DNA of 64,000 bases from an uncultured Comamonadaceae bacterium (GTDB lineage: Bacteria > Pseudomonadota > Gammaproteobacteria > Burkholderiales > Burkholderiaceae_C). A model generated the notes under the pieces. That model saw nothing but the letters and a program-made list of their open reading frames with translations, was not told where the DNA came from and made no database searches. Shown in pieces: positions 11,216 through 53,309 of this stretch (position 1 is its first letter; every line of letters begins with the position of its first letter). Location of the stretch: the NCBI GenBank assembly GCA_963992225.1, contig CAXDTK010000001.1, positions 38,164 through 102,163 on the forward strand, read 5' to 3'. The position numbers were made by a program, and so were the translations under genes.

Positions 11216-11337
11216 CAGACACAGATCACCTTCCAGCGACTGGAAAACCAGGAGCGGCGCGGTTGCGGTTTGTTGACTGACGCCCTTCCGGGCGATGCCG
11301 ATGCTGGCGACTCGTTCCCTTACCGCGAGTCGTCACC

Positions 11338-12111
11338 ATGTCCAACGAATCCCAGCAGCCCCTGCAATTGAATCTCGGATCGCTGCGCAGCGCGATGTCA
11401 CTGACGCTGCACACCCACCACGCTTCACGCATCTGGCATGGCCGAGCGCCCGCTGAGGGCCGGCCCGGGATCATCGGCCTCAACGGCTACATCAGCGTGA
11501 TGAACAAGATGAAGCGCGGGGCCGAACAGGACGATCCTTACTCGGACTGGTGGATGCTGCGCATCGAGGACAAGCTGACGCAGACCAAGGCGAGCTTGCA
11601 GGCGCTGCGCGAGCAGGTGGACCAGGCGCTGGCCGACGTGCCACCCGCACTGTCGCTGGGCGAAAACATGAACGTGCAGCCCGTGAAGCTGCCGCTGTTC
11701 GTCAATGCGCAGCTCGGCTTCATGGCGGTGTACCTGCTGGCCGACTACGACGACCTGGCACGCAAGCTGATCCTCGCCCACCACACTGCGCTAATCGACC
11801 GCGGCACGTTGGAACGCTGGCTCAACGACGGCGCGCACGCGCTGCGCAGCCTGTTCTCCCTGGCACAGCAGTACCGCTACGCCGGCGCGACTCGCGACGA
11901 CTTCGCCTCGAAGAACGCGGTGGCGCGGGCAGCGCTGGAGAAGTTCGGCGAGCTGCCGCAGGACGTGCTCGAAGGCACGCGCCGCTCGCGCTTTGCGCCA
12001 CCGATCGCGCGGCGGGCGGGCAAGCCTGGTGCAACCGCTGAGGCCGCGCCCGTCGCTGGCGCAGCCGACGTGGCGGACGACGATCTGGACGGCGAAGGCG
12101 CCAAGGCATGA
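11338..12111 (+). CDS. PFL_4669/TIGR03761-family ICE protein (InrR-like)
   Basis: LGSLRSAMSLTLHTHHASRIWHGR, DDPYSDWWMLRIE, GTRRSRFAPPI. Confidence 0.8.
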   Translation: MSNESQQPLQLNLGSLRSAMSLTLHTHHASRIWHGRAPAEGRPGIIGLNGYISVMNKMKRGAEQDDPYSDWWMLRIEDKLTQTKASLQALREQVDQALADVPPALSLGENMNVQPVKLPLFVNAQLGFMAVYLLADYDDLARKLILAHHTALIDRGTLERWLNDGAHALRSLFSLAQQYRYAGATRDDFASKNAVARAALEKFGELPQDVLEGTRRSRFAPPIARRAGKPGATAEAAPVAGAADVADDDLDGEGAKA

Positions 12112-12659
12112 CGGCATCGCCTTCGACCGGCCAACCGGCGCGCTTCCTGCCGCTGGAACAGGCGGACTTCCAGCGCCTGGAACACGCGGGCTACCTAAAA
12201 GGCCTTTTACAGCCTTTTAAGGGTAAGGGGAGTCTGGAGGCCTGGGCCAGCCAGTGCACGGCGCTGCGCGATGACGTGATCGGCTTGGCGCAGCGGCGTG
12301 TGCTGCAACAGGCGCGGGCCTATCCCTTCTCGCTGCTCGATGTGCAACTGGCCCAGCAGACCACTGGCGCAGGCACGACCTTCCTGCGCTGGCGCAACCA
12401 CGATCGTTCCTCGATGGGCGTGGCGCTGTGGGAGTCGCTGCTCGACCGCCCGGCAACGCCGGCCTCGCTGATCGATGACCTGTACGCGATGGAGTTGCAG
12501 CGCATCGCGCTGAACATGCAGATCAGCCTCCTTCACACGCTGGGCCGCCAGGCCCAGGAGTGCGCCAGCAAGGCCGCGCAGGCCGAAGCGGCTTACCTGC
12601 GGCGTGTCCACGGGCATGCCGCGTCCGTTCCATCCACCACCCCCAAGGAGTCACCATGA
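12108..12659 (+). CDS. DUF3158-family ICE protein
   Basis: LKGLLQPFKGKG, GTTFLRWRN, LNMQISLLH; between inrR-like and ssb. Confidence 0.75.
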   Translation: MTASPSTGQPARFLPLEQADFQRLEHAGYLKGLLQPFKGKGSLEAWASQCTALRDDVIGLAQRRVLQQARAYPFSLLDVQLAQQTTGAGTTFLRWRNHDRSSMGVALWESLLDRPATPASLIDDLYAMELQRIALNMQISLLHTLGRQAQECASKAAQAEAAYLRRVHGHAASVPSTTPKESP

Positions 12660-13105
12660 GCACGCACTTCGTCGGCGAGGGCAACATCGGTTCCGCGCCG
12701 GACTATCGCGAATTCCCCAACGGCAACGACGAGCCGCGCCGGCTACTGCGCCTGAACGTCTACTTCGACAACCCGATCCCGAAGAAGGACGGCGAGTACG
12801 AGGACCGCGGCGGGTTCTGGGCACCCGTGGAGCTGTGGCACCGCGACGCCGACCACTGGCAGACGCTGTACCAGAAGGGCATGCGGGTGCTGGTGGAAGG
12901 CCGCACCGTGAAGGACGAGTGGGAAGACGCCGACGACAACGAGCGCACCACCTTCAAGATCGAGGCCCGGCGCATTGGCATTCTGCCGTACCGCCTCCAG
13001 GCTGTGACCCTCAGCGCCAGGACGCTGGAACCCGAGGCGGCAGTACCGCCGCCGAAGGAAACCAAGGGGACGAAGGCGCCGAAGGAAACCAAGGCCAAGG
13101 GCTGA
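12656..13105 (+). CDS. ssb: Single-stranded DNA-binding protein (ICE type)
   Basis: MSTHFVGEGNIGSAPDYREF, LYQKGMRVLVEGR OB-fold; GGAG RBS. Confidence 0.88.
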   Translation: MSTHFVGEGNIGSAPDYREFPNGNDEPRRLLRLNVYFDNPIPKKDGEYEDRGGFWAPVELWHRDADHWQTLYQKGMRVLVEGRTVKDEWEDADDNERTTFKIEARRIGILPYRLQAVTLSARTLEPEAAVPPPKETKGTKAPKETKAKG

Positions 13106-13157
13106 TTCCCCCGCAGGGGGCGGCTGTAGCAACCGTCAGACGCCCGCCATGCACCAG

Positions 13158-13174
13158 CTATCCCCAGGGGATAG
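13158..13174. repeat. 17-bp palindrome CTATCCCCAGGGGATAG, copy 3 (extends to 19 bp, 13157-13175)
   Basis: Identical core in the ssb-topB spacer. Confidence 0.95.
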
Positions 13175-13385
13175 CGCCAGGGTGTTCCACCGAGTTCCAG
13201 CCGCCCTCCCGAAACGACGCTCCCGCTGCGCCAGCCTTTGCGGTCAGGTCGTACCTGCTGCGGCAACGCATCGCCCGCCGTTCACAAAGCGGTGTCTATG
13301 CCGATCGGCTTCCTTGCTGCCGTCATCCGCTGGCCCGGCCAAGCTGGGGGCCATCCGATGAACCGCACACTTCCAAGGAGGCTTC

Positions 13386-15404
13386 ATGCGCGTGTTCCTG
13401 TGCGAGAAGCCGTCCCAGGGCAAGGACATCGCCCGTGTACTGGGCGCGGGCCAACGCGGCAACGGCTGCTACAGCGGTGCGGGTGTCGTCGTGACCTGGT
13501 GCATCGGTCATCTGGTCGAAGCGGTTGCGCCCGAAGGCTATGGCGAGCAGTACAAGCGCTGGGCCATCGAGCAACTGCCCATTCTTCCCGAGCGCTGGCG
13601 TGTCGAACCCAAGGCGGCGACCGCGGCGCAGTTCAAGGTCGTGCAGCAGCTCGTCGCCAAGGCGGGCGAGCTGGTGATCGCGACTGACGCCGACCGCGAA
13701 GGCGAGATGATCGCCCGCGAAATCATCGAGCTGTGCGGCTACCGCGGCCCAATCCAGCGGTTGTGGCTGTCCGCGCTCAACGATGCGTCGATCCGCAAGG
13801 CCCTGGCGGCGCTCAAGCCGTCCGTCGAGACGCTGCCGCTGTACTTCTCCGCGCTCGCCCGATCGCGTGCCGACTGGCTGATCGGGATGAACCTAAGCCG
13901 CCTGTTCACGTTGCTCGGGCGCCAGGCCGGCTACAACGGCGTGCTGTCGGTCGGGCGTGTGCAGACGCCCACGCTCAAGCTGGTCGTGGACCGTGATCGC
14001 GAGATCGCACGCTTCGTCTCGGTGCCGTTCTGGGCCATCGAGGTCGCGCTTTCGCATGCGGGCCAGTCCTTCGTCGCAAGCTGGATGCCGCCGCAGGGCA
14101 GCGCCGACGACGCCGGCCGCTGCCTGCAGCAGCCGGTGGCGCAGCAGGCAACCGCACAACTGCGCGCGGCCGGCGCCGCCCAGGTGCTGTCGGTGGAGAC
14201 CGAGCGCGTGCGCGAAGGCCCGCCGCTGCCGTTCGACCTCGGCACCTTGCAGGAGGTGTGCTCCAAGCAGTTGGGCCTCGACGTGCAGGAAACGCTGGAC
14301 ATTGCCCAGGCGCTGTACGAGACGCACAAGGCGACCACGTATCCGCGCTCGGATTCAGGCTACCTGCCCGAGAGCATGCTGGCAGATGTGCCGGCCGTCC
14401 TCGACAGCCTGGTCAAGACCGATCCCAGCCTGCGACCGCTGATCGACCGCCTGGATCGCCAACAGCGTTCGCGGGCCTGGAACGACGGCAAGATCACGGC
14501 GCACCACGGCATCATTCCGACGCTGGAACCGGCCAACCTCTCGGCGATGAGCGACAAGGAGCTGGCCGTCTACCGATTGGTCCGCGCGCACTACCTCGCG
14601 CAGTTCCTGCCGCATCACGAGTTCGACCGGACGGTGGCGCAGCTTACGTGCGGCGGGCAGTCGCTGGTCGCGGTCGGCAAGCAGATCGCGGTGGCCGGAT
14701 GGCGCCAGGTGCTGGCGGCGCCGGAGCCCGACGACACGGACGGCGAGGACGCGCAGCGCGGCCAGGTGCTGCCGGCGTTGCGCGCCGGGGCCTCCTGCCA
14801 GGTCGGCCAGGTCGAACTGAAGGCGTTGAAGACGCTGCCGCCCAAGCCCTACACGCAAGGCGAACTGGTCAAAGCCATGAAAGGCGTCGCCAAGCTAGTG
14901 ACCGACCCGCGCCTGAAGCAGAAGCTCAAGGACACCACGGGCATCGGCACCGAGGCCACACGTGCCAACATCATCAGCGGGTTGCTGGCCCGCGGTTATC
15001 TCTTGAAGAAGGGCCGTGCCATCCGCGCGTCGGATGCGGCATTCACGCTGATCGACGCGGTGCCGGCGGCCATCGCCGATCCGGGCACGACGGCGGTGTG
15101 GGAGCAGGCGCTGGACATGATCGAGGCCGGTCAGATGACGCTGGACACCTTCATCGCCAAGCAATCGAGCTGGGTCGCCCAGCTCGTGCAGCAGTACCGC
15201 AGCGCCACACTCGATCTCAAGCTGCCGCCTGCACCGAGCTGCCCGCAATGCGGCGCCCCGATGCGCCAGCGCAGCGGCAAGAGCGGCGCGTTTTGGTCTT
15301 GCAGCCGCTATCCGGACTGCAAGGGCACGCAGCCGATCGAAGACGCCGCGGCAGGCAAGCGCGGCGCGTCCAGCCCGCGGCATCGGCGTCCCAAGGCGAG
15401 CTGA
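13386..15404 (+). CDS. topB: DNA topoisomerase III
   Basis: LCEKPSQ, ATDADREGE Toprim, SVGRVQTPTL, TYPRSD active-site Tyr, GIGTEATRA, C-terminal zinc ribbon. Confidence 0.95.
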   Translation: MRVFLCEKPSQGKDIARVLGAGQRGNGCYSGAGVVVTWCIGHLVEAVAPEGYGEQYKRWAIEQLPILPERWRVEPKAATAAQFKVVQQLVAKAGELVIATDADREGEMIAREIIELCGYRGPIQRLWLSALNDASIRKALAALKPSVETLPLYFSALARSRADWLIGMNLSRLFTLLGRQAGYNGVLSVGRVQTPTLKLVVDRDREIARFVSVPFWAIEVALSHAGQSFVASWMPPQGSADDAGRCLQQPVAQQATAQLRAAGAAQVLSVETERVREGPPLPFDLGTLQEVCSKQLGLDVQETLDIAQALYETHKATTYPRSDSGYLPESMLADVPAVLDSLVKTDPSLRPLIDRLDRQQRSRAWNDGKITAHHGIIPTLEPANLSAMSDKELAVYRLVRAHYLAQFLPHHEFDRTVAQLTCGGQSLVAVGKQIAVAGWRQVLAAPEPDDTDGEDAQRGQVLPALRAGASCQVGQVELKALKTLPPKPYTQGELVKAMKGVAKLVTDPRLKQKLKDTTGIGTEATRANIISGLLARGYLLKKGRAIRASDAAFTLIDAVPAAIADPGTTAVWEQALDMIEAGQMTLDTFIAKQSSWVAQLVQQYRSATLDLKLPPAPSCPQCGAPMRQRSGKSGAFWSCSRYPDCKGTQPIEDAAAGKRGASSPRHRRPKAS

Positions 15405-15608
15405 CGCCCACGTCTCCCTCTGCCACGCCGGCTGCTGCCGACGGCGGGGCAAACCTCCCGCGCCCCGCGGGACTCCCCAGCGCGCGTTCCCTTCTGCAAC
15501 GGTGTGCGCGTCCTGCACGGACCGATCACGGCTTGCAGGGCGAGAAGGTCATTGCTCCATCGAATCGCGCTCGTCGCGGTTCCGTTGATCGAGGTGCTTC
15601 CGCCATCC

Positions 15609-15667
15609 GTGAGCGGTCTCCTGACGCCTTGGCTTGCAATGCTGCGAGGTGTCAGGAGACCGCTCGC
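15609..15667. repeat. Long inverted repeat in a ~600-bp ORF-poor spacer
   Basis: GAGCGGTCTCCTGAC (15611-15625) is the exact reverse complement of 15651-15665; extends with G-T pairs. Confidence 0.85.
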
Positions 15668-15992
15668 GGTCGACGGTATTCGGTGCCGGTGCCCGCCGGC
15701 GGAACAACGGGTTCCCTTTGTGTGTGGATACACGCCAGAGGATGCCGGCCCCAGCCACGAAACGGGCCGGGTGAGATTGCTGACGCAGCGAATGGCTTTG
15801 ACGACGGCCTGGCCTGCTTGCAGCCCACAGGTGGATTGATTCCTCTCCAGCCGAAGTCCCTCGGGGCTTCGGCGCCTTTGTCGTGGGCGGACGGATCGTG
15901 CACCGCTCCTGCCGGCAGTGCTCGGGCCAAATCGGACGACGCGCAGTTCCGTTTGATCGGCGACGGTGCGCTTCGGGGCTTCCATCCTTCCT

Positions 15993-16070
15993 GCATGTGT
16001 CGCTGACGGTCGTCAGCAGCATGCCCTGGCAGCCCAGGTCTTCAAGGCTGCAACGCGGTTCGCCACGTTG
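15993..16070 (+). repeat. Three-hairpin element, copy 1
   Basis: GCTGAC/GTCAGC, CATGCCC, GCAGCC-N11-GGCTGC, TTCG loop. Confidence 0.75.
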
Positions 16071-16210
16071 ACCGATCCAGTCCGCTTCGCACCGACCACC
16101 GCGGACGCGTGTCATCACGACGCGGGTGCTTTTCATGTTCAACCCTTCGGGAAGTGTCCCGCTCCCGAAAGGGCGTGGTGCTCCCGGTCTTCAACTACCA
16201 GGAGAAACCC

Positions 16211-16462
16211 ATGTCCCTTGCGTTCGCATCGGCACCTTTGAGTGCTGAACAGGCCCGCGCCGAATCCATCGGCTACCAGGCTCTGGCCTACGTCGGCAAG
16301 CGCCTGCCCCTGCAGGTGCTGTGCAGCGCGGCCGGCCACTACATCGGCACCGCCGATGTGGACGGCCCGGTCTCGCGCGAGTCGGTCAGCTACTTCCGCT
16401 CGCACCACGCCGCCGAGCACGCCCTGCAAACGGGCCGCTGGCAGCAGCGACTCAACCCGTGA
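16211..16462 (+). CDS. Conserved ICE hypothetical protein
   Basis: GGAG RBS, GC-typical codons; LQVLCSAAGHYIGT...PVSRESVSYF. Confidence 0.7.
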   Translation: MSLAFASAPLSAEQARAESIGYQALAYVGKRLPLQVLCSAAGHYIGTADVDGPVSRESVSYFRSHHAAEHALQTGRWQQRLNP

Positions 16463-16486
16463 TGTCCAACCACCAGGAGCCAAGTC

Positions 16487-16879
16487 ATGAACCGTGCCCT
16501 GCCTCAAGAGGTACTTGATCAGATTGAGCTGGAACACCAGCACTTCGCTGCCGCACCCCAAGCCTTCTTCGAGGCATGGAAGCGCGGCGTCCACATCGCC
16601 GGAGCCGAATGGTTCGGCGACGGAACCCGCGAAGGCCTGCGGCGTGCCACCACCAAGTGGGATCTGCGGCCAAAGCTGATGATGCTCAACGACGCCCTCG
16701 GCGTCCTGAGCAGCGGCCAGCGGATGTTCCTGTCCGCGATGGTGAGCTTCTACAACGCCCGTGAGGGCGGTGCGATGCTCAAGCGTTGCGGCTTCGAGGG
16801 TCTGTCCGACCTGGGCGGCCTCGACCTGGAACGGCGCAAGGTCATCGCCGACCTGACGCTGAACTACAACGGCTGGTGA
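16487..16879 (+). CDS. Conserved ICE hypothetical protein
   Basis: AGGAG RBS; FFEAWKRGVHIAG, SSGQRMFLSAMVSFYN. Confidence 0.7.
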   Translation: MNRALPQEVLDQIELEHQHFAAAPQAFFEAWKRGVHIAGAEWFGDGTREGLRRATTKWDLRPKLMMLNDALGVLSSGQRMFLSAMVSFYNAREGGAMLKRCGFEGLSDLGGLDLERRKVIADLTLNYNGW

Positions 16880-16979
16880 GCTGCTTCGGCCCGCCAACGT
16901 TCTTCCTTTTCTCCCACCCCACGAGGGACATGCGTCCCTATGCGGGGCCATGTCCCTCCTTTCTTCATAGGAGTGAATC

Positions 16980-17434
16980 ATGTCCCCTGACTTTTCCATC
17001 GGTCTGCTCGTGACCGACGACGACATCGATGCGGTCATCCTGGAAGGTTGGCCGGCCGACGTGCGCAAGCCGCGCATGGTGGTATTCGACTACGCCGGCA
17101 ACGATGTGCAAGACGAGTATGTGCTGCATGTCAGCAGCGGAACTCCGAACACCGGATTGACCGGGCGCGAGGTTTTTCCGGTCGAGTACGGCCCTAACTG
17201 CCGTTACCCATCGCCCGCTGAAGTCCTTTCGGTGCTCGATGCACGCAAGCCGGCCGAAAAACCTTCCGCGCTGAGCATCGCCCGCAACGTACACCAAAGC
17301 ATCCTTGACTTGGATGCGCGGCTTGATCGCCTGGAGCAGGCGACGACTACAACAGCCTGTACCAGCTTGCGAATGGCGGCCTGATCGACCTGTTGAAGGT
17401 GCTGGGCGACCCGTCCTCTACCGCTGCCGGCTGA
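16980..17434 (+). pseudogene. Hypothetical protein with apparent frameshift near 17340
   Basis: GGAG RBS at start; after LEQ the protein-like tail DDYNSLYQLANGGLIDLLKVLG continues in another frame to TGA 17434. Confidence 0.5.
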
Positions 17435-17514
17435 CCGGCTGCCACTTCATCCACCCGCTGGGGTTCAATCCCCAGCAGGGGATTGCCTCGGCCATCCTCT
17501 GCTGGAGAAATCCC

Positions 17515-18231
17515 ATGTCCTACTCGAACAACAATCCCTTTGTCCGCGGCTACGACGGCCTGTCCGTCCAGCGGCTGCTTGCCATCTCCTACGACGACGA
17601 CTGCCCGCTGACCTACCTGCCCCTGCATCCCTCGCAGTCGAATCTGCCGGACAGCCAGGTCGAACGGCGGGCCTGCATCTTCTCGGACGACTTCGTGCTG
17701 ATCACCGAGGACCAAGCGGTCCCCGATGAACTGCAAGCGCAATGCCGCAGCCACGGGCTCGCCCGCAACGTTGTCTATGCCGTGATGGCCGAGGAAGACG
17801 GCAAGCCGCTGCACGTGGGCGACACCTACTCCGAAGAAGCGGCGCGGGAAGTCGTGCGGCGCCTGCGCTATGAAACGGGCTACTACAGCCGGTGCTGGGA
17901 GATCAGCAGCGCGCACCTCGACGCCGACGCGCATCGCTTCCTCTCCGAGCTGGCGGACATCGCCACGCCGACGCTGTTCCTGTTCGTCGCCTTCCGCATC
18001 CCGTACAGCCCGGCCATCGGGTTGAAGCTGATCGCCACGCCCTGGACCGACGAGAACCTGCGCGCGGTCGAAGGCACCACGGCCAAGCGGCTGATGCAGG
18101 AGCACCGCAAGAAGGGCATGCCGGAATCCCTGGTGCAGGTGCTGCACCTGGCCGCGCTCGCCGACGTGCGCATGCTGGTCTTCGATGCCGATGCGCAGGT
18201 GCTGGACGGCCTGCCGATCTACGACGACTGA
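17515..18231 (+). CDS. Conserved ICE hypothetical protein
   Basis: GGAG RBS; CWEISSAHL, LHLAALADVRMLVFDADA. Confidence 0.72.
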   Translation: MSYSNNNPFVRGYDGLSVQRLLAISYDDDCPLTYLPLHPSQSNLPDSQVERRACIFSDDFVLITEDQAVPDELQAQCRSHGLARNVVYAVMAEEDGKPLHVGDTYSEEAAREVVRRLRYETGYYSRCWEISSAHLDADAHRFLSELADIATPTLFLFVAFRIPYSPAIGLKLIATPWTDENLRAVEGTTAKRLMQEHRKKGMPESLVQVLHLAALADVRMLVFDADAQVLDGLPIYDD

Positions 18232-18341
18232 CACCACCTTTCGAGCCCCCACGCGGGGCTCGTTTCATTTCTGGACGAAGCCGGTGGCGGCGCAGTGCCG
18301 ATTCCCCCACGACGCTGGCCCACACCCGACGCACGCTGCTC

Positions 18342-18416
18342 GCATGTTCGCTGGCGTTGCCGGCAAGCATGCCCAGGCAGTCGAGACCTTCGAGGCTGCG
18401 GCACGGTTCGCCGCGC
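18342..18416 (+). repeat. Three-hairpin element, copy 2
   Basis: GCTGGC/GCCGGC, CATGCCCAG, GCAGTC-N11-GGCTGC, CGG-TTCG-CCG. Confidence 0.75.
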
Positions 18417-18524
18417 TGGTTGCTTTTCCTTCCACGGGCGCATGCGCGTCCATCCACCTCACCCCCAAGGGACATGCCTCCCTTGCGGGCGGAAGTTCCT
18501 TGGATTGCCACAAGGAGCCTCCTA

Positions 18525-19322
18525 ATGGATACCCAAGCCATCCGCGCACAGATGCCGACGCTGGTTCGCGGCCACGTGCCTTCCAACGTCCGCAGCTTCA
18601 AGTTCAACATCTTCGACGGCCAGCCCAAGGTTTCGACGCTGGGCTTCCACGTTGATCCCAAGCCTTTCGAGGGCAAGGTTATCGCCACCACCGACGAGGC
18701 CATCGTCGTCAAGACGGGCCGGGCCGAGTTCGCGGTGCTCGACAAGGCGCTCGTCACCGATGTGCCCGACGAAGGCGCCAAGGTGCAGGTCGAACCGTAT
18801 GCGCGGCGCCGCTTCGACGGCATGCGCGCGGACACGCCCGAGGAGAGCACCGAGTTCACCGCCGACGGCCAGCCGTACACGGTGAAGCGGCTCATCCTGG
18901 GTTCCGCGCCGGCCAAGTTGCCGATCCCCGAGCCGCAGTGCCCCGAGCTGCAGGAGCTGATCCACCAACTGGAGCAGTTGCCCGCGCCCGATGGCTTTCG
19001 CCGCATCACGCACCTGCTGGTGGATGCCGGCGCGCGGGACTTCACGGTGGTCGATCCGAGCCCCCGCAACATCATCGCCACGCCGCCGGCCATCGGCTTC
19101 ACCGTCGCCTCAGCGAAGTTCCAGGGGCGCGTCACCGTGCTCTACGAGCGCGGCCTCGACCTCTACGCGGTGGAGCTGCACCGCAACAGCAATCTGGTCG
19201 AGCGGGTCGATGAAGTGTCGTTCGACGAGCTGGGCCAGGCCCTGGAGCGGCTGATCGACGACGGGAGCTGGCGCCTCATCCGCGTGCAGCGCCTGTCCGG
19301 CCGCAAGCTGGTCCAGCACTGA
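18525..19322 (+). CDS. Conserved ICE hypothetical protein
   Basis: AAGGAG RBS; RSFKFNIFDG, GFRRITHLLVDAGA, YERGLDLYAVEL. Confidence 0.72.
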   Translation: MDTQAIRAQMPTLVRGHVPSNVRSFKFNIFDGQPKVSTLGFHVDPKPFEGKVIATTDEAIVVKTGRAEFAVLDKALVTDVPDEGAKVQVEPYARRRFDGMRADTPEESTEFTADGQPYTVKRLILGSAPAKLPIPEPQCPELQELIHQLEQLPAPDGFRRITHLLVDAGARDFTVVDPSPRNIIATPPAIGFTVASAKFQGRVTVLYERGLDLYAVELHRNSNLVERVDEVSFDELGQALERLIDDGSWRLIRVQRLSGRKLVQH

Positions 19323-19400
19323 GCCCCTGCGTTCCTAAGCGGCTTCCCGTCCCCGCGGCGGGAAGCCTTTCCTCCCATACCTCGATTGGAGACCACTTCC

Positions 19401-19766
19401 ATGACTGTTCGATTCAAAGGCACCGAGCTTCGGCCCGTGCTTGCCGAGGCGGCGGCCAACCAGTGCCGCGTCGTCCTGGTCAAGGACCAGGGCGTGTATT
19501 TCATGGCCGAGCGCGGCGAGAGCCGGCCCGATGGGCGGCGCAAGACCATCGCCTATGCCGTGGGCTGCAACCCTGATGTCGATGTGTTCGACGACTGGTG
19601 GGAACTGGCGCGCGCCGAATTCGGCGGCGACGACTTCGGCGAGTTCTTCGACCTGCGGGAACGGGTGTTCAGCCGCATCCTGCACAGCGAGGACGACCTC
19701 GAAGTGTCGGCCACGGCCACGCACCTGTCGATGCAGCCCATGCCCGCTGCGCCGGCCGGCCACTGA
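19401..19766 (+). CDS. DUF3085 protein
   Basis: LVKDQGVYFMAERG, AYAVGCNPD, GGDDFGEF. Confidence 0.8.
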   Translation: MTVRFKGTELRPVLAEAAANQCRVVLVKDQGVYFMAERGESRPDGRRKTIAYAVGCNPDVDVFDDWWELARAEFGGDDFGEFFDLRERVFSRILHSEDDLEVSATATHLSMQPMPAAPAGH

Positions 19767-19889
19767 CCGTCCTGCTTCCCAGCCCCTCATGAAGGGGCTT
19801 CACTTTTTCCCGAGGACGCCGTCAATGCGGGGCGTCTCGGATACCGATTGCCGCTCGCGCGGGCGCGTGCCAGGCGCCACGCTTATCAC

Positions 19890-19968
19890 CATGTTCCGCT
19901 GACACCCGTCAGCAGCATGCCCAGGCAGTCTCGATCTTCAAGACTGCGATGCGGTTCCGACCGCGTTG
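19890..19968 (+). repeat. Three-hairpin element, copy 3
   Basis: GCTGAC/GTCAGC, CATGCCCAG, GCAGTC-N11-GACTGC, GCGGT-TCCG-ACCGC. Confidence 0.75.
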
Positions 19969-20124
19969 ATCACCCAGTTCGCTCCGGCATCCCAGCGCGA
20001 ACGGCCATCGGTTCTCCCGATGGTGATGCCACCCAAGCTGTTCCTTCAACCCACGCGGGGGTTCCACACCTTCCCCGCCTTGGGTCGGGTGTGTCTCCGC
20101 CTCTTTGTTCTCAGGAGATTCACC

Positions 20125-20688
20125 ATGACCACTTCCACCGAAAGGTCCTTCTTCGACCTGCACATCACCGGACTCGGGTATCTCAATCGCATCCGCGAAG
20201 TGAAGCCCAAGAAAGGCGATGCGTTCCTGGCCTGCGACATCGCGGCGCTCAACGGCCCCAGCGATGATGTGGCCTACGTGCGTTTCGACACGCGCGTCTC
20301 GGGCTCCGAAGCGCAGCACCTGGTGCGCCGCTGCATCCAAGCGGTTGATGCCGAGAAGAAGGTGATGATCGGCTTCCGCCTGGGCGACCTGTGGACCGAC
20401 ACCTTTACCTACTCCAAGGGCAAGCGTGCCGGCGAGCAGGGGGTGAGCCTCAAGGCCCGCCTGCTGTTCGTCAGTTGGATCAAGGTCGACGGCAAGCTCG
20501 TCTACAAGGCCGAGCCCAAGCCGACCGACGCCGACGACCGCGACGAACGCGACGTGCGCGCCACGGATGTCCCCGCGACGTCCGCCGAGCCGCAAGCCGC
20601 TGCGTCCGAGCCCGCCAGGCCCGCCGCTGAAGCTGCCGATGAAGCCACTGCCGATGCGCCCGCATTGGAAGTTGCCGAGTCGTTCTGA
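20125..20688 (+). CDS. DUF3577 / STY4534-family ICE protein
   Basis: FFDLHITGLGYLNRIREV, FLACDIAALNG, KARLLFVSWIKVDG. Confidence 0.8.
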   Translation: MTTSTERSFFDLHITGLGYLNRIREVKPKKGDAFLACDIAALNGPSDDVAYVRFDTRVSGSEAQHLVRRCIQAVDAEKKVMIGFRLGDLWTDTFTYSKGKRAGEQGVSLKARLLFVSWIKVDGKLVYKAEPKPTDADDRDERDVRATDVPATSAEPQAAASEPARPAAEAADEATADAPALEVAESF

Positions 20689-20808
20689 TCCGCAAGGCCC
20701 TGACTCTGAATTGAGCCCAGGGCCTTGTCTTCTCCCACTCGCGTGCGCATGCGACCGTCACCATGACAGCCGTGTGCGTGATCGCAGCTTCGTCCGCAGG
20801 AGTTCTTC

Positions 20809-21438
20809 ATGATCACCATTCCCGGCCAATTGGCCATCAAGACCATCCACGGCCGCAACGGCGACTTCAACGTCGGGCGCCTTGCGACCTCCATCGGCGA
20901 GTTCGTCGTGAAGAACGCCGAACTCGACCAGTACGCCGAAGGCAAGTACGAGGGCGATTTCGCCATCGCGGAGATTCGCCCGTCCACGTACACCGCCAAC
21001 GGTCGCATGGTCATCGAGATCCGCGCCCTCCTGGGCGGGATGACCTTGTCCAACATCGACGCCCTGAGCCGTGACGACGCCCGCCGGCTGAGTCCGCAGG
21101 AAGTCGATCCGATCGACGAGGAAGCGCAGACCGCCACGCCGACGCCGACGACCGCCCCCAAGGCGGCCGGCCGGAAGAAGGCGCGCAGCTCGCGCGACCC
21201 GCTGGTCGATACCACGCCGTTCGGCAGCGAACCGGCTGCTGCGTCTGCCGAGGCTCCGGTCCAGGCGGACGAAGACGGCGACGCGGCACTGTTCGGTGTG
21301 CTCTGGCCGCTGGGCGATGTCGTCAAGCTCGATGCCACCGTGGATCGGCGCGTGCTGCGTCAACAGCGCGACCGTCTCGGCGACCTGGGCTACGAGTTCG
21401 CTCCGCTGTCCCAGGACTGGCACCTCGCCAGGGTCTGA
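20809..21438 (+). CDS. DUF3275-family protein
   Basis: MITIPGQLAIKTIHGRNGDFNVGRLATSIGEF, VKLDATVDRRVLRQQ. Confidence 0.78.
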   Translation: MITIPGQLAIKTIHGRNGDFNVGRLATSIGEFVVKNAELDQYAEGKYEGDFAIAEIRPSTYTANGRMVIEIRALLGGMTLSNIDALSRDDARRLSPQEVDPIDEEAQTATPTPTTAPKAAGRKKARSSRDPLVDTTPFGSEPAAASAEAPVQADEDGDAALFGVLWPLGDVVKLDATVDRRVLRQQRDRLGDLGYEFAPLSQDWHLARV

Positions 21439-21540
21439 TCCCATCGCCACTTCACGCCGCGTGCCTGCGGCTTTCCACCAACCCGCCGGGGTTCCTTCCC
21501 CGGCGGGAGGACTCCGGCCCTTTCTCACAGGAGTCATTCC

Positions 21541-21936
21541 ATGGGCTGGACATTCGTTCGATTGACGCGCGATCAATTGATCCGCGAGCTGACCGCAACT
21601 GAGGAAACCGAGCGGTCGCGCAATGAGGTCATCGATCACACGCTGGTCGGCAACGTGCTGTGGACGGTGGTGCGCGTCACCGCCAAGCAGGCCGGTGTCC
21701 TGGGTCTCGCACCCGGAGAGTCGGCCACCTTGATTGGCTGCCATCTGCTGGAAAGCGAGGGCCGCGAATGGGGCTACAAGTCCCTGGTCGAGGCCGAGCA
21801 CCCGTACTACTACTCGTGCCCGCTGCGCTATCTCGACATGGCGCCGCAGCGCTGCGCCACTTGGCGCGCAAGGGTGCATGCCTTCCATCAGCAGCATCCG
21901 GCGAGCAGTGTGGCCGGCGATGCAGCCACTGAGTGA
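21541..21936 (+). CDS. Conserved ICE hypothetical protein
   Basis: AGGAG RBS; WGYKSLVEAEHPYYYSCPLRYL. Confidence 0.7.
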   Translation: MGWTFVRLTRDQLIRELTATEETERSRNEVIDHTLVGNVLWTVVRVTAKQAGVLGLAPGESATLIGCHLLESEGREWGYKSLVEAEHPYYYSCPLRYLDMAPQRCATWRARVHAFHQQHPASSVAGDAATE

Positions 21937-21943
21937 GGCGCAC

Positions 21944-22213
21944 ATGGACACCATCCTGTCGTCCATGCGGCCCGAGCTGCTTCGCTTCGTCGAAGAACAG
22001 TTGGCCAACAACGAGGTTTCCGACGACGACGAGCTGCGCGAGCACTTCATCGCCAACGGCCTGAGCGAAGAACAGGCGTGGCAGGCACTGACCTACCGCG
22101 CCCTGTACTTGCGCTACATCTTCCTCGAAGGCTTCACGCCGATCCTTAAAGGCCAGGAAGCGCTTTGCTTCAACCCGCATAGCCGAGGCTGGGAGCCGGT
22201 TCAGAACCCATAG
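21944..22213 (+). CDS. Hypothetical protein (89 aa)
   Basis: GAGG RBS, coupled to upstream gene, typical codon usage. Confidence 0.6.
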   Translation: MDTILSSMRPELLRFVEEQLANNEVSDDDELREHFIANGLSEEQAWQALTYRALYLRYIFLEGFTPILKGQEALCFNPHSRGWEPVQNP

Positions 22214-22348
22214 GCCGCTTCCCAGCGACGCGCTTCTTCATCCCTTCCATCAGGCCCTGTTCAGCAGGGCTTTTCTTCGTCCCACGCAATCCGCGCATCC
22301 GGCCTCGGCCGCTGGATGCCGATTGCTTCATTCCGCAAGGAGATCATC

Positions 22349-23176
22349 ATGCAACTCGCTTCCCGCTTCGCTTCTCGCTCCCCGGTGCTGCGCGCCGACT
22401 ATCCGCTGTCGGATGATCAGATTCGCACCGTGGCCCCGTCCATCTTCGCGGACACCCCGCACGAAAGCCGCTCCGAACGGTACAGCTACATCCCCACGGC
22501 GGCTGTGCTGACTGAACTGCGCAAGGAAGGCTTCCAGCCGTTCATGGTGTGCCAGACCCGCGTGCGGCACGAGGACCGCCGCGACTACACCAAGCACATG
22601 CTGCGCCTTCGCCACGCCAGCCAGATCAACGGCGCCGAGGCGAACGAGATCATCCTGCTCAACTCGCACGACGGCAGCAGCAGCTACCAGATGCTCGCGG
22701 GCCTGTTCAGATTCGTCTGCCACAACGGCCTGGTGTGCGGCGACACCTTCGCCGACGTGCGGGTGCCCCACAAGGGCAACGTCACCGATCACGTGATCGA
22801 AGGCGCCTACGAGGTGCTGCACGGCTTCGAGCGCGTGCAGGACTCGCGCGACGCCATGCAGGGCATCACGCTGGACAACGGCGAGGCCGAGGTCTTCGCC
22901 AAGTCGGCGCTGACCTTGAAGTACGACGATTCGGGCAAGGCCTTGCCCATCACGGAGACCCAGATCCTGCGGCCCCGTCGTTACGACGACAACCGCGCCG
23001 ACCTGTGGACTGTCTTCAACAGAGTCCAGGAGAACCTGGTCAAGGGCGGCCTGAGCGGCCGTGCTGCCAACGGGCGCCGGCAGCGCACGCGAGCCGTCCA
23101 GGGCATCGACCAGAACGTCCGGCTCAACCGGGCGCTGTGGCTGCTGGCGGACGGCCTACGCCAGCTCAAAGCCTGA
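22349..23176 (+). CDS. DUF932/DUF945 domain protein
   Basis: LSDDQIRTVAPSIFA, SERYSYIPT, EIILLNSHDGSSSYQMLAGLFRFVCHNGLV. Confidence 0.88.
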   Translation: MQLASRFASRSPVLRADYPLSDDQIRTVAPSIFADTPHESRSERYSYIPTAAVLTELRKEGFQPFMVCQTRVRHEDRRDYTKHMLRLRHASQINGAEANEIILLNSHDGSSSYQMLAGLFRFVCHNGLVCGDTFADVRVPHKGNVTDHVIEGAYEVLHGFERVQDSRDAMQGITLDNGEAEVFAKSALTLKYDDSGKALPITETQILRPRRYDDNRADLWTVFNRVQENLVKGGLSGRAANGRRQRTRAVQGIDQNVRLNRALWLLADGLRQLKA

Positions 23177-23183
23177 CCCACAA

Positions 23184-23220
23184 GCGGATCGTGCCTCACG
23201 GCATGGTCCGCTTTTTTTTT
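23184..23220 (+). terminator. Rho-independent terminator after DUF932 gene
   Basis: GCGGATCGTGCC-TCAC-GGCATGGTCCGC followed by T9. Confidence 0.8.
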
Positions 23221-23392
23221 GGCTGGTGCCGTGCTGCCAGCGCACCGCGTTCCATTTGGTTCGGTGTAACCCTAATGCGCCAATTCGCCGCTGCCTCGAA
23301 AATCGAGATTCGACTGCATACCTCCTTGGCTTTTCCTCCCTGAGCCAAGCAGTCATCTTTGCCGCCTCGGTGTCCCCGGGGCGGTTTTCTTT

Positions 23393-24478: not shown

Positions 24479-24594
24479 TTTTCTTTTGCGGCCGTCCTTC
24501 CGGCGCCGCGGGCGATGCGCCAGCGCAAACAGGGTTGGGCGCCGGGTCGGTTTTTCGCTCACGCGGTGTACGCAGCTTGGCGCAGGCTATGACT

Positions 24595-24669
24595 CGTGTC
24601 CGTCGGCGTAGCCGACAACATGCCCAGGTAGCCCAGACCTTCAAGGCTACGGTGCGTTGCGACGCACGG
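24595..24669 (+). repeat. Three-hairpin element, copy 4
   Basis: GTCGGC/GCCGAC, CATGCCCAG, GTAGCC-N11-GGCTAC, GTGCGT-TGCG-ACGCAC. Confidence 0.75.
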
Positions 24670-24772
24670 TCTGATTCTTCACAACGACGTTCACCGCGTC
24701 TTCTTCCATCCCCCTGGGGCAGTGACTGCCCTCGCGGGTGGTGCTGTCTCCGCTCACTTCGAGGACATCACC

Positions 24773-25429: not shown

Positions 25430-25496
25430 GGTTCCTTCACCGGACATGCACGCGCGCATGTCCGCATCCTTTCATCTTCAATGCCAGGAGATTCCC

Positions 25497-26612: not shown

Positions 26613-26724
26613 TCGCTGTTCCCTGACGATTCGCCGTCGCTTCATCCACCAACTCATCCACCCAACGGGGCCATGTCACCCCGCCGGGTGCCGTGGCCCC
26701 TCTTTCATCCGAAGGAGAAACACC

Positions 26725-27030
26725 ATGGCACTCGCAGTTCTCAACCTGGCGTCGCAAGCACGCTTTGCCCCCGGACACCTGGTCATGACCCGCGGCATCG
26801 ATGCGCTGGTCCAGCAAGGCCGGCTCAACCCGGCACCGTATCTGTCCCGCCATCTCAGCGGCGATTGGGGCGACCTCGACGACAGCGACCGGCGTCAGAA
26901 CGACGCCGCGTTGCGCTCCGGCGAGGATCGGCTTTTCTCGTCCTACCAGGTCGCGCCTGACCTGAAGCTCTGGATCATCACCGAGTGGGATCGCAGCGTG
27001 ACCACGCTGCTGTTGCCCAGCGAATACTGA
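26725..27030 (+). CDS. Conserved plasmid/ICE small protein
   Basis: AAGGAG RBS; RHLSGDWGDL, RLFSSY, LWIITEWDRSVTTLLLPSEY. Confidence 0.75.
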   Translation: MALAVLNLASQARFAPGHLVMTRGIDALVQQGRLNPAPYLSRHLSGDWGDLDDSDRRQNDAALRSGEDRLFSSYQVAPDLKLWIITEWDRSVTTLLLPSEY

Positions 27031-29414: not shown

Positions 29415-29428
29415 TCCCACCCACCCAC

Positions 29429-29462: not shown

Positions 29463-29577
29463 GTTCTGCGCATCGACGGCAGGCCATGAAGTCGGGCGCA
29501 TGCCAGTTCCCTTTGTTTGCTGCCCCAACGCCCTGCGGCGGCGATGGTGAGGGCTCCGTGTTCCAGGGAACTGCCCC

Positions 29578-30821: not shown

Positions 30822-30830
30822 GAGCCGGCC

Positions 30831-35599: not shown

Positions 35600-35712
35600 C
35601 CGCATCGGCCGCCGCCGCGGAAAGCGGTGGCGGGCCGGTTCCGATTGATTGCGGCGCTGGAAGACCGGCCGTTTGAGCATCGAGCCATCCGCATCCCTCG
35701 GAGAACGGCTCG

Positions 35713-43598: not shown

Positions 43599-44354
43599 AT
43601 GCAGGTCGCTCGCTTCATTCCATCCCGCTCAGTCGCATTGGTCTCTGTGCTGCTCATCGTTGCGCTGATCGCGGCGGCCTGGCTGGGCTTACAGCCACAA
43701 ACGCCGATCGCCGAAGACGCTTCAGCGTCGGCCGAGTTCAGCCAGGCGCCCAAGCTGGCACTCGCCGCCGCGAGCGGCCCGCCTTGGCGCTATGGTCGCG
43801 ACGATGCGCGCTTCACGGTAGTGGAGTACGCCGACCTCGAATGTCCGTTCTGCCGCGCGTACTTCCCGGCGCTGAAGCAGTGGATCGACGCGCACCCCGA
43901 GGTGAACTGGCAGTGGCACCACCTGCCGCTGGCGCCGCACGAGCCTGCGGCGACTGCCAATGCGCGCCTGGTCGAGTGCGTTGGTGAGGCCGGCGGCTCG
44001 GCCGCGTTCTGGCGGGCGGTCGAATGGGTCTATGCGCACACCCGCGGCGACGGCCAGGGCCTGCCCGAGGGCCTGGGCTATCCAGGCATCACGCCGGCCG
44101 CCCAGCAGTGCCTCGACAGTGATCGCCCTGACACGCTGATCCGCGCGCAGTCGGCGAGCGCCGCGCAGGAGGGCGTCAAGGTCACGCCCACGCTGCGGTT
44201 GCAGGATCGCCAGTCCGGCAAGACGCTGCTGCTGCATGGCCCGGTGGAAGGCGATGCGCTGCTGTCGGCCATCGACCTGCTGGCGGCCGGCGGCACCACC
44301 GACACTGCATCGAAGGAAATGCCTGCCGAGTCCCTCGGCGACATGCCCAGGTAG
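43599..44354 (+). CDS. DsbA/DsbC-like thioredoxin-fold protein
   Basis: EYADLECPFCRAY CxxC, HLPL, VTPT cis-Pro loop; N-terminal anchor. Confidence 0.85.
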   Translation: MQVARFIPSRSVALVSVLLIVALIAAAWLGLQPQTPIAEDASASAEFSQAPKLALAAASGPPWRYGRDDARFTVVEYADLECPFCRAYFPALKQWIDAHPEVNWQWHHLPLAPHEPAATANARLVECVGEAGGSAAFWRAVEWVYAHTRGDGQGLPEGLGYPGITPAAQQCLDSDRPDTLIRAQSASAAQEGVKVTPTLRLQDRQSGKTLLLHGPVEGDALLSAIDLLAAGGTTDTASKEMPAESLGDMPR

Positions 44355-44392
44355 CCCCCGATCTTCAAGGCTACGCCGCGGCCTTGGCCGCG
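44325..44392 (+). repeat. Three-hairpin element, copy 5 (overlaps dsb stop codon)
   Basis: GCCGAG/CTCGGC, CATGCCCAG, GTAGCC-N12-GGCTAC, CGCGGCC/GGCCGCG. Confidence 0.7.
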
Positions 44393-44547
44393 CTGATCGA
44401 CCCCGTTCGCCTCGCATCCTTCGACGCGAACAGCCGCCGCGCTGCGGTGGCGGATGCCCGCTCTTCCATCGCTTGTTGTTCATCCCACGCGGGTCGCCCA
44501 CGCCCGCAGGGGCGGCATGGCGTTCCGCACCTTCTATGGAGACTGCC

Positions 44548-45126
44548 ATGCAACCCAAGACTCATGTTGTTGATGGTGTGACCTTCGTGGCCACGCCTTA
44601 CCGCGCCGGAACCTTCGTCCGCGAGGATGTGTTCTGGCGCCAGTTCACGATCACCTGCCAAGGCTATATCGAGTACCCCGAGGACGATCGCGTTTTCGGG
44701 ACCTGGTGGACACCTCACATCCTTGAGCTGGGCCAACACGGCCTGATCGAGGATGCCCTGGCCCTCGCAGCGGACGAGCTGTCAAAAGACGAGTTCGATC
44801 TGAGGTCGGAGATCGAGGCGCTGGACTTTCGGCCGGAACTGGTCCTGATCCGCGATTCGCTCGATCGGCTGGTTGTCACTGGCGAGGTGCAGTGCGGCGG
44901 CCGCATCCGCTGGTGCGAACCCACCGCCTCAGATGCGGAAGCCGCCGACGTCGCGAAGCAGGTCGATGACCTGCGCGGCGAGGCGTCCTACGAAGCTGGC
45001 TGGGACAACCACAGCACGGCCGAGCGCCTGCGCCTGCGCGCCCGCGTACTGGCCGGCCGGTTGGTCGATCCGTTCTGGCAAGTCCATGCCCGCCGCGCCA
45101 TTCAGGCCTCGGCTGCGGGCGCCTGA
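44548..45126 (+). CDS. Unknown 192-aa acidic protein
   Basis: GGAG RBS, structured leader, own terminator at 45133-45155; no motif recognised. Confidence 0.65.
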   Translation: MQPKTHVVDGVTFVATPYRAGTFVREDVFWRQFTITCQGYIEYPEDDRVFGTWWTPHILELGQHGLIEDALALAADELSKDEFDLRSEIEALDFRPELVLIRDSLDRLVVTGEVQCGGRIRWCEPTASDAEAADVAKQVDDLRGEASYEAGWDNHSTAERLRLRARVLAGRLVDPFWQVHARRAIQASAAGA

Positions 45127-45268
45127 TTCCCACGGGAGCTTCGGCTCCCGTTTTTCCTCCTTGTGCCGCTTGCGAAAGCGGGGTGTGCGCGGTGCGCATT
45201 CCTTGTCGCAGCAGACATGCCTTCGGCGTTCGACTAGGGGCCTTGCTCTCATTTCCAGGACACCCGCC

Positions 45269-52195: not shown

Positions 52196-52213
52196 GCCAA
52201 GGCAAGCGGCGTG

Positions 52214-52678
52214 TCAGCCTTTGTGCTGGCCCAGCCAATCGGCTTTGCTCGCTGCCACCAGCGCCGCCCAATCGTCCGGCGGGTTGCCGCGTCCCAGCAT
52301 CTTCTCGAACACGGCGTAGGGGTCGGACTTGCTGCCCGCCGACCGCAAGGTCTGCTCGTCGTTGACCCAGGCGTACACGATGACCTTCGCCTTCGAGTCG
52401 TAGCGGAAGAACAGCCGATACCGTCGTCCGAGCTTGGCTCGCCGCCAGTGGCGATAGTCCGGTCCCATGGTGTTGCCCTGACGATACTCGTCGCGTGCCG
52501 GATCGCTCGGCACCACGTCTTGCATCAATTGCACCAAGGCCCGGAAGAACTTGACGTTGGCGTTGGACGCAAAGCCTTCCGAGTCGTTCTCTTGCGCACG
52601 CAGCACGGCTGCGCGCAGCTTCATCAACTGCTCGATCAGGTTATCGTGAAACAGCAGCGTCCAGCCATGCTGCTGCAT
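52214..52678 (-). CDS. yhaV: YhaV-family type II toxin
   Basis: HGWTLLFH, YRQGNTMGPDYRHWRRAK, RLFFRYDS, AWVNDEQTLR, DPYAVF. Confidence 0.88.
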   Translation of the reverse strand: MQQHGWTLLFHDNLIEQLMKLRAAVLRAQENDSEGFASNANVKFFRALVQLMQDVVPSDPARDEYRQGNTMGPDYRHWRRAKLGRRYRLFFRYDSKAKVIVYAWVNDEQTLRSAGSKSDPYAVFEKMLGRGNPPDDWAALVAASKADWLGQHKG

Positions 52679-52995
52679 CAGATTTCCACGTCCTCATCGA
52701 AGTCATCGCCCAAGACAACCTTGTGGCCTGCATGCTCCAGCATCGTGCGAGCCAAATCCTCGGGCAGGCCGCGGATGTTCCGGCCAGCCTCGATGTCGTG
52801 AGCCAGCAGGGTCAGGAACGCGGCGATGGCAGGGTCTTCATGCTCGGCATCGGCACGGGTCACGACCACTTCGCCGCCGCGAAGGTCGAACGCCACCTTG
52901 CCGCCGGTGTCCACGCCCAGCACCTGCCGGATGGACTTGGGCAGCGTGATCTGACCCTTGGAGGTCAGCGTCGCGACTTCGTGGATTTCGGGCAT
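52678..52995 (-). CDS. prlF: PrlF/AbrB-family antitoxin
   Basis: ATLTSKGQITLPKSIRQVLG AbrB fold, EDPAIAAFLTLLAHDI; overlaps toxin start. Confidence 0.88.
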   Translation of the reverse strand: MPEIHEVATLTSKGQITLPKSIRQVLGVDTGGKVAFDLRGGEVVVTRADAEHEDPAIAAFLTLLAHDIEAGRNIRGLPEDLARTMLEHAGHKVVLGDDFDEDVEI

Positions 52996-53025
52996 GGCGG
53001 CACTCCTGATGGCAATGCCTGGATG

Positions 53026-53043
53026 GTAAGGAAGTTTCCTTAC
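53026..53043. promoter_or_regulatory. Inverted-repeat operator of the TA operon
   Basis: GTAAGGAA-GT-TTCCTTAC about 30 bp upstream of prlF. Confidence 0.7.
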
Positions 53044-53309
53044 GCTGTCAATGTGAGGGCGCATAGTGCTGTTTCCGGGTGTATGAATCCAGCTCCATCG
53101 TAGGGACGGCACAGCCAGCCTTCCCGCATCAATCCGCCTTGGGCCAGGCCCGCATTGGTTGTGGCTGGCTCGCCTCGGTTGCCCTATATCCAAAGGCTTC
53201 CAAAAGGCCAAAGGGCTGGGGAAGGGGCAAGGGAATGGGGCCAAGGGGAATGGCCCTACCCGAAAAGGCCAAAAGGCTCTCCCGACCCGCCCGCCGTCCG
53301 GGGTTCGCC

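Follow-up and report, generated by a model that had tools for sequence, protein, structure and literature searches.

Background

In the integrative and conjugative element (ICE) ICEclc, eight bimodal promoters share a common motif, presented as a 27-bp MEME motif in S3 Fig of the study describing them (Sulser 2022, PMC9286271). According to a later account, the transfer-competence promoters of ICEclc carry 11 narrow peaks of the protein BisC in chromatin immunoprecipitation followed by sequencing (ChIP-seq), which share a 15-nt consensus and a weak inverted repeat 12 bp apart, and BisD loads at two palindromes, termed bisS, and spreads approximately 50 kb along the direction of transcription (Antar 2025, PMC12409273); the preprint version of the latter paper does not carry the BisC consensus. 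Here we describe a 64-kb stretch of DNA (the window, 66.6% GC) from the 5.75-Mb genome of an uncultured Comamonadaceae bacterium [GCA_963992225.1, contig CAXDTK010000001.1], which holds the conserved core of an ICE of the ICEclc/PFGI-1 family, 42 kb in length and lying almost wholly on the + strand. Ten sites in this core carry a bipartite motif composed of two short boxes and a 17-nt spacer. Most likely these sites are the operator-promoters of the transfer-competence regulon of the element, the box being read by the ICE's own BisC. The BisDC regulon and its motif have already largely been published for ICEclc, in 2022 and 2025, and the present element is a new example of it; some value is added by an explicit dyad and promoter geometry, by the correction of sites in the literature, and by a link to the radC RNA.

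The repeated bipartite motif

The initial annotation had listed ten two-part sequences with a 17-nt spacer, and all of them are present, beginning at 11245, 13286, 15929, 18278, 19824, 24527, 29489, 35621, 45175 and 53131. The consensus given with them, AA(A/G/T)NC(G/A)G-N17-TT(G/C/T)NTTG, holds for the sites at 11245, 13286, 29489, 35621 and 45175, the other five deviating in box 1 or box 2. This strict pattern occurs five times in the window, always on the + strand, against 0.04 occurrences expected from shuffles, and 11 times in the whole genome, five of these being inside the ICE core. Taken alone this count is circular, because the pattern was fitted to the same sites.

Zero-or-one-occurrence-per-sequence expectation maximization (ZOOPS-EM) was seeded from every intergenic position, 20 dinucleotide-preserving shuffles serving as the control. 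This unbiased search recovered the same register for 8–9 of the ten sites with a best log-likelihood of 144.1, against 103.0 ± 5.0 for the shuffles (maximum 119.4). With leave-one-out matrices seven sites ranked 1–3 among approximately 128,000 positions, and those at 11245, 53131 and 19824 ranked 10th, 19th and 58th, respectively. For comparison with ICEclc, 80 kb of the copy residing in P. xenovorans LB400 were fetched and orthologues were mapped in concatenated coordinates. An independent matrix, trained solely on eight sites of this ICEclc copy and scanned over the genome of the present host, placed window sites at ranks 1, 2, 3, 5, 8, 12, 13 and 14 of 11.45 million positions; as orthologous sites share ancestry, such tests across elements gauge conservation and not independent origin. 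The motif is not equally frequent in coding or shuffled sequence, matrix scans having found no comparable matches in coding DNA. The existence of the repeated bipartite motif is confirmed.

Of two further remarks made in the initial annotation, that several sites follow a terminator is borne out by terminator-like hairpins at 18242, 19781 and 29443, with one visible before 45175. The other, that GTTCC directly precedes box 2 in several cases, stands for 15929, 29489 and 35621; elsewhere only near variants occur.

Some additional candidates were considered. ZOOPS-EM picked 26816 as an eleventh site, which was rejected on its genome-wide rank of 3214 with the ICEclc-only matrix, and the candidates at 3760 and 18711 are weak (-0.5 and 9.4 bits) and were excluded from the count. 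Elsewhere in the genome, the match at C1:110117 (C1 being the contig which contains the window) is a chance match within a divergent sigma-70-type promoter, and that at C13:30565 lies inside a coding gene. On the - strand of another host contig, at C148:4455, AATCCGGTCGGCTTGACAACCGCATTCATTG fits the strict pattern (18.8 bits) and is a possible box of another ICEclc-family fragment residing in this host.

Correspondence with the BisDC promoters of ICEclc

The matrix derived from the window finds boxes in the LB400 copy at inrR, topB, UR89247, orf88400, orf84835, orf81655, UR73676/pilL, orf67231, the operon beginning approximately 600 nt before TIGR03756, and traI. Besides the inrR box, the LB400 sites predicted in concatenated coordinates are at 13264, 17492, 18389, 21376, 26256, 34752, 41411, 50752 and 56857. 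Nine of the ten window sites possess a motif-bearing syntenic counterpart in ICEclc, the exception being 24527. These counterparts lie at the BisDC-dependent bimodal promoters of inrR, orf88400, orf81655, orf67231 and traI, and at the extra BisC peak upstream of orf84835. Synteny suggests that the counterpart of 45175, before the TIGR03757/03756 genes, is probably the BisC peak upstream of iceB7. The counterpart upstream of topB is not among the promoters named in the available portion of the ICEclc text. The ICEclc promoter P67231, which is the example site for the published BisC consensus, fits the strict pattern exactly.

For three promoters the placement of the 2022 motif seems mistaken. 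What was matched at P81655 and P58432 is hairpin 1 of the radC RNA, and at PinR the conserved box is found 100 nt further downstream. An exact search for the 27-mer printed for P81655 gave no match; the printed text departs from the LB400 sequence by one substitution, which is either a copy error or a difference between B13 and LB400. In the ICEclc literature RNA-seq coverage is described as rising at UR73676, UR84835 and UR89247, where the 2022 motif is reported to be absent; all three regions are among the places at which boxes were found in LB400.

The window encodes both components of the activator. A BisD-like ParB-family activator subunit (6342..8021, +) matches TIGR03764 [ICE_PFGI_1_parB; 393.6 bits, residues 28–294]; some 265 further residues follow its ParB-type N-terminal half, and it is 69.5% identical over 476 aa to the product at the bisD position of ICEclc-LB400. 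Immediately downstream lies the gene for a BisC-like DUF2857 protein (8035..8595, +) [PF11198; 213.7 bits], presumed to be the box-binding subunit, with 77.8% identity to BisC of ICEclc-LB400. The two genes are adjacent downstream of parA, in the same order as in ICEclc-LB400. The bisS-like palindrome CTATCCCCAGGGGATAG at 9835..9851, a presumed BisD loading site, shows three mismatches, all in the flanks, to the published bisS GAGCTATCCCCnGGGGATAGCTC. Two further copies lie at 11199..11215, which is 30 nt upstream of the inrR box, and at 13158..13174, between ssb and the topB box. The three 17-bp cores have 2–3 flank mismatches to the 23-mer, and none would be expected in shuffles. At inrR the order of bisS and then box is also conserved in ICEclc and in relatives. 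The BisD and BisC orthologues, the bisS palindromes and the synteny of nine of the ten sites together support the attribution of the boxes to the local BisDC pair, as made in the initial annotation.

By analogy with ICEclc the following sequence of events might be envisaged. BisC, probably as a dimer, would sit on the dyad, which directly precedes the place of the absent -35, and, following the ICEclc model, would activate only once BisD arrives. BisD, a ParB-type clamp using cytidine triphosphate (CTP), would load at the bisS-like palindromes at 9835, 11199 and 13158 and slide along the co-directional 45-kb core, its contact with BisC switching each promoter on. Four boxes would then fire straight into radC RNA leaders and six into short leaders, and the hairpins situated directly before boxes (18242, 19781 and 29443) might split the core into separately activated units.

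Another regulator encoded nearby might read the boxes instead, the candidates being the AcaB-family InrR (11338–12111) and the BisR-like product (3913–4854). InrR does fall into Pfam AcaB, and sequence alone names no reader protein. We consider this unlikely, since the narrow ChIP peaks at these promoters in ICEclc are those of BisC; the promoter on which BisR acts in ICEclc, that of alpA, has two copies of CTGCAATTGCAG and no box; and inrR is itself under the control of a box, which places its product downstream in the cascade. BisC continues to be the preferred reader.

Anatomy of the box and geometry of the promoter

When the motif is numbered from 1 at the initial A of box 1, the information profile peaks at A1, A2, G6, G7, T19–C21, T25, T26, T29 and G34. 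The best dyad centre lies at position 13.5–14 both in the set composed of window and ICEclc sites and in that of the relatives. The dyad is a weak inverted repeat with AAnnCGG (box 1) as its left arm and CCGnTT as its right arm, the final TT of the latter being also the start of box 2; the dyad is clearest in the orthologues of 45175, where it reads AAACCG-N14-CGGTTT. A TTG is found downstream of the dyad, and is absent from four sites, which are those followed by the radC RNA.

In 142 unique sites from relatives an isolated A...T peak, lying outside the scanning matrix, stands at positions 56 and 60. A -10-like hexamer nAnnnT (consensus CATGCT) occupies positions 55–60 in 14 of the 20 window and ICEclc sites, beginning 23 nt after box 2, and lies within 2–3 nt of this register in the rest. 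No -35 hexamer was seen, and a consensus scan of 11000–30999 yielded no sigma-70-type promoter. Transcription is predicted to start near position 67, giving leaders of 23–34 nt for inrR, topB, pilL and RAQPRD, a leader of approximately 65 nt at 45175, and a longer one before traI. For the ten sites in order the predicted starts are near 11312, 13352, 15995, 18344, 19890, 24595, 29555, 35687, approximately 45244, and 53197.

From the 2022 motif to the mapped PinR start in ICEclc the distance is 152 bp, the motif itself being 175 bp before the start codon (Sulser 2022, PMC9286271). In the concatenated LB400 coordinates this start is 11247/8, and it coincides with that predicted from GATCCT at 11235–11240. 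Because the mapped PinR start falls where the geometry of the box predicts, the box can be taken to span approximately -67 to -37. With their predicted start sites, the boxes fit a class-II-type activator promoter, in which the operator abuts or overlaps the -35 position, a -35 is missing and the -10 stands at a fixed distance.

It is unlikely that RNA polymerase reads the motif directly, that is, that the boxes constitute an alternative-sigma promoter (with an RpoS-type or extracytoplasmic function [ECF]-like -35) plus an A-rich UP-like element. In favour of this suggestion the motif is strictly oriented with transcription and keeps a fixed distance to the -10-like hexamer, and ICEclc PinR and Pint are reportedly RpoS-dependent. 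However, 20 nt separate the TTG of box 2 from the -10-like hexamer, which is too great a distance for a -35, and four sites do not have this TTG; box 2 was rejected as a -35 on these grounds. A sigma-54 promoter was likewise rejected: the GC of TTGC follows the GG of CCGGTTCC at 14 nt instead of 12, which misfits the GG-N10-GC spacing, several sites have no GG or TTGC, and the mapped PinR start is approximately 36 nt past box 2, not 12. The dyad symmetry extends over some 26 bp, as is typical of the site of a dimeric protein, and BisC ChIP peaks stand on the same promoters in ICEclc.

Conservation in relatives

The comparison drew on 240 related loci surrounding BisC, DUF4400 and TIGR03756, with 2.87 Mb scanned. 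A box was called present at 12 bits or more, with counts made over distinct regions and windows of equal size as controls. Boxes are found at orthologous positions in 45/46 distinct relatives for topB, 48/50 for pilL, 28/32 for RAQPRD, 35/36 for the 16487 gene and 55/58 for the TIGR03756 operon, compared with 3–11% of the control windows. The box of the TIGR03756 operon (orthologues of 45175) keeps a fixed distance of 520–538 nt from TIGR03756. Upstream of inrR the box is conserved in 48 distinct relatives, where box 1 is weaker (CAACCGG) and the site as a whole is strongly kept. In alignments of relatives box 1 and the GTTCC..TTGnTTGC block stand at constant spacing and the spacer sequence varies freely. 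The strand bias is pronounced: 297 matches of at least 15 bits lie on the transcribed strand versus four on the other. At the traI site the relatives keep the right half, box 2 and a CTATAYC -10. The family is large, there being 461 and 414 confirmed matches for two core proteins among GTDB species genomes.

radC RNA leaders

A scan against Rfam revealed five copies of the radC RNA [RF01754] in the window, at 84.9–118.3 bits against a gathering threshold of 40 bits, and ICEclc-LB400 likewise has five. Four of the window copies begin 55–58 nt after box 1, namely those at 15984–16129 (downstream of box 15929), 18333–18492 (box 18278), 19880–20029 (box 19824) and 24585–24739 (box 24527). This puts the -10-like hexamer within the unpaired 5' end of the radC model and the predicted start at the foot of hairpin 1. 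The fifth copy (44308..44457, +), an orthologue of ICEclc P58432, has no upstream box; it is located at the 3' end of one gene, which ends at 44354, and precedes another at approximately 44540–45126. In the ICEclc literature P58432 is called a weak or not an independent promoter, and the presence there and at 44308 of a radC copy without a box agrees with that doubt. The copies in the window resemble the radC RNA motif as originally described (Weinberg 2010, PMC2864571) in that all five exceed the gathering threshold, and differ in that four of them sit 55–58 nt after box 1; such a link to a promoter was not found in the literature searched. That literature likewise yielded no function for this RNA.

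In view of these leaders one might suppose that the similarity is inherited and not functional, a duplicated box-plus-radC unit with the remainder due to chance in GC-rich DNA, and four of the ten sites do precede paralogous radC copies at the same 55–58 nt and may share descent, but this is highly improbable, as six sites share the motif with no radC, the radC copy at 44308 has no box, the box-radC interval is not conserved and the boxes are, nothing comparable emerges from shuffles or from the whole genome, and orthologous sites keep their boxes while the spacers diverge.

Weight of the evidence

Several points nevertheless weigh against boxes read by BisC throughout the regulon. Besides the shared ancestry of orthologous sites mentioned above, 24527 and 18278 reach only modest scores with the ICEclc-only matrix (ranks 145 and 352), and 19824 scores poorly in the leave-one-out test. 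The -10-like hexamer at 45175 is 2–3 nt off register, and box 1 of the traI site is not conserved in relatives. The published 15-nt BisC consensus was compared through its verbal description, which fits, and through P67231. The alpA promoter has no box here (best -10.5 bits) or in ICEclc, though it is activated by BisDC in ICEclc; the motif therefore does not account for the whole regulon. Finally, we infer BisC binding, dependence on BisD and the start sites in the present element from ICEclc. Against this stand the agreement of register, synteny and geometry described above, and recognition of the boxes by BisC remains by far the reading that we favour.

The individual sites

The box before the inrR(AcaB-family)-DUF3158-ssb genes (11245..11275, +) ranks 8 with the ICEclc-only matrix, to which the following ranks also refer unless stated otherwise. 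Its box 1 is the weak variant AAACCAG, a -10-like GATGCT lies at 11300–11305, and the start is predicted at approximately 11312. The topB box (13286..13316, +) ranks 3; CAAGCT at 13340–13345 is its -10-like hexamer and its LB400 counterpart is at 13264 in concatenated coordinates.

Four boxes are followed by radC RNA leaders. That at 15929..15959 (+), preceding a leader and the 16487 gene block, ranks 14 and is the orthologue of ICEclc P88400. That at 18278..18308 (+) precedes a leader and DUF3085; it ranks first in the leave-one-out test, has a box 2 without TTG, and is syntenic with LB400 position 21376, upstream of orf84835. The box at 19824..19854 (+), with a leader and the DUF3577-DUF3275-DUF932 genes downstream, ranks 13 and is the orthologue of the box upstream of ICEclc P81655, being syntenic with LB400 position 26256. 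The fourth (24527..24557, +; leave-one-out rank 3) follows with its leader an IS1595-type transposase gene. ICEclc has no counterpart of this site, there being a coding gene at the equivalent place, and the module looks like one which restores transcription downstream of the insertion sequence (IS). The transposase gene (IS1595/ISXO2-type; 23396–24382, - strand) separates the DUF932 gene from the core gene that follows, strong terminators are present at 23182 and 23361, and the box and radC module comes directly after it.

Upstream of the genes from pilL to traD and DUF4400, the box at 29489..29519 (+) ranks first genome-wide and has a -10-like GATGGT at 29543–29548. It is the orthologue of ICEclc UR73676, the LB400 site being at 34752; an assignment to P67231 was rejected, as synteny puts P67231 at 35621 and UR73676 at 29489. 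The box of the mating-pair operon running from RAQPRD to the VirB4-like gene (35621..35651, +) ranks 2, has GAGCAT at 35675–35680 as its -10-like hexamer, and is the orthologue of P67231. The box at 45175..45205 (+), before a TIGR03757-like gene and TIGR03756...traG, ranks 5 and is syntenic with LB400 position 50752.

The diverged box before the MobH relaxase gene traI (53131..53161, +) reads as the motif on both strands, ranking 12 on the + and 10 on the - strand. Its -10-like hexamer is TATATC at 53185–53190 and the ICEclc counterpart is at 56857. The sequence 53119–53161 (AATCCGC...GCATTG) is nearly palindromic and adjoins CCAAAGG/G-rich repeats; a divergent gene (52214–52678, - strand) lies upstream of this box.

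Gene content and neighbouring features

The core begins with genes for a LysR regulator, the BisR-position product (3913–4854) and an alpA-like protein, followed by parA and the BisD-like (TIGR03764) and BisC-like (DUF2857) genes. Next come a STY4528-family gene and an inserted PLD nuclease gene on the - strand, and then the AcaB-family inrR [Pfam AcaB, "Transcriptional regulator AcaB"], DUF3158, ssb and topB. A block of DUF genes with a methylase and a helicase precedes pilL to traD and DUF4400, and the core ends with RAQPRD to the VirB4-like gene, TIGR03756 to traG, and the MobH relaxase.

Upstream of the alpA-like gene, at 4880–4910, two direct copies of the palindrome CTGCAATTGCAG stand 21 nt apart. 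They are kept in relatives, and ICEclc has CTGCGGT...TTACGGT repeats in their place; they are a candidate operator of the BisR-position regulator. The inserted PLD-nuclease/OGG-like gene (9885–11198, - strand) separates the first and second bisS-like palindromes, and relatives without this insert have a bisS-bisS pair or a lone bisS directly before the inrR box.

Approximately 17.2 kb upstream of window position 1, at C1:20948, a box-like site (AACGCGG-N17-TTCTTGC) lies some 90 nt before a gene for a 641-aa tyrosine-integrase-like protein adjoining a tRNA-Gly gene, and resembles ICEclc Pint. This integrase gene is co-directional with the core, the layout in ICEclc being convergent; it may be part of a neighbouring island or of the present ICE, differently arranged. 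In the LB400 copy of ICEclc group II intron domains [RF02001, RF01998] were found within the core at L167:3056–3347, between the radC copies of the orf84835 region and of orf81655; this intron shifts coordinates by approximately 1.7 kb relative to the published ICEclc numbering.

Implications

We lean towards the view that the box as defined here describes the BisC operator better than the versions in print, and that the radC RNA is the leader of BisDC-activated "early" operons. If so, the operator would extend from approximately -67 to -37 and would be described by the dyad AAACCG-N14-CGGTTT, a TTG following it, and a -10 at a constant 23 nt. The radC RNA, known since 2010, would lead the genes on the ssb/topB side and the DUF3085, DUF3577, DUF932 and methylase-helicase operons, and transcription in ICEclc-family elements would begin at the foot of its hairpin 1. 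One would then understand why P58432 "has the motif" yet is no real promoter, why coverage increases at UR89247, UR84835 and UR73676 although the 2022 motif is "absent" there, and why no ICE transcript is more abundant than the orf81655 leader.

Elements of the ICEclc family are very widespread in beta- and gammaproteobacteria, and their cargo includes catabolic, resistance and virulence genes. A box readable from sequence would predict the whole transfer regulon of any member, including cargo or inserts which bear a box, such as that at 24527. For work on ICEclc itself there would be a sharper operator with testable positions and spacing, three relocated motif instances, and the placing of the radC RNA under BisDC.

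Comparison with known systems

The closest system is ICEclc, with which the present element shares gene order, BisD and BisC orthologues, bisS palindromes and boxes at syntenic promoters; the published 15-nt consensus with an inverted repeat 12 bp apart, as described, fits the dyad found here. The two differ in that the window element has a GC content of 66.6%, encodes proteins 50–88% identical to those of ICEclc, and carries the PLD-nuclease and IS insertions. Three bisS-like palindromes are present here against the two described in ICEclc, and an extra box and radC module follows the IS.

KorB of plasmid RK2 is a ParB-family CTPase which loads at a palindrome and slides over kilobases, with a clamp-locking partner. 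As in KorB regulation, a second, sequence-specific promoter protein would give the regulatory output; unlike KorB, which represses, BisD and BisC activate, and the promoter-bound partners are unrelated.

According to the ICEclc literature BisC is FlhC-like by Phyre2 and BisD has no FlhD domain. The AcaCD (IncC), SetCD (SXT/R391) and FlhD4C2 (class II flagellar boxes) systems are alike in having one master activator for each set of promoters, and in AcaCD and SetCD the activator is encoded by the element and reads, at each transfer operon, a degenerate box lying over or just upstream of the place of an absent -35, much as proposed here. The present system differs from all three in the unrelated sequence of its box, and in that activation would be coupled to loading at distant bisS sites.

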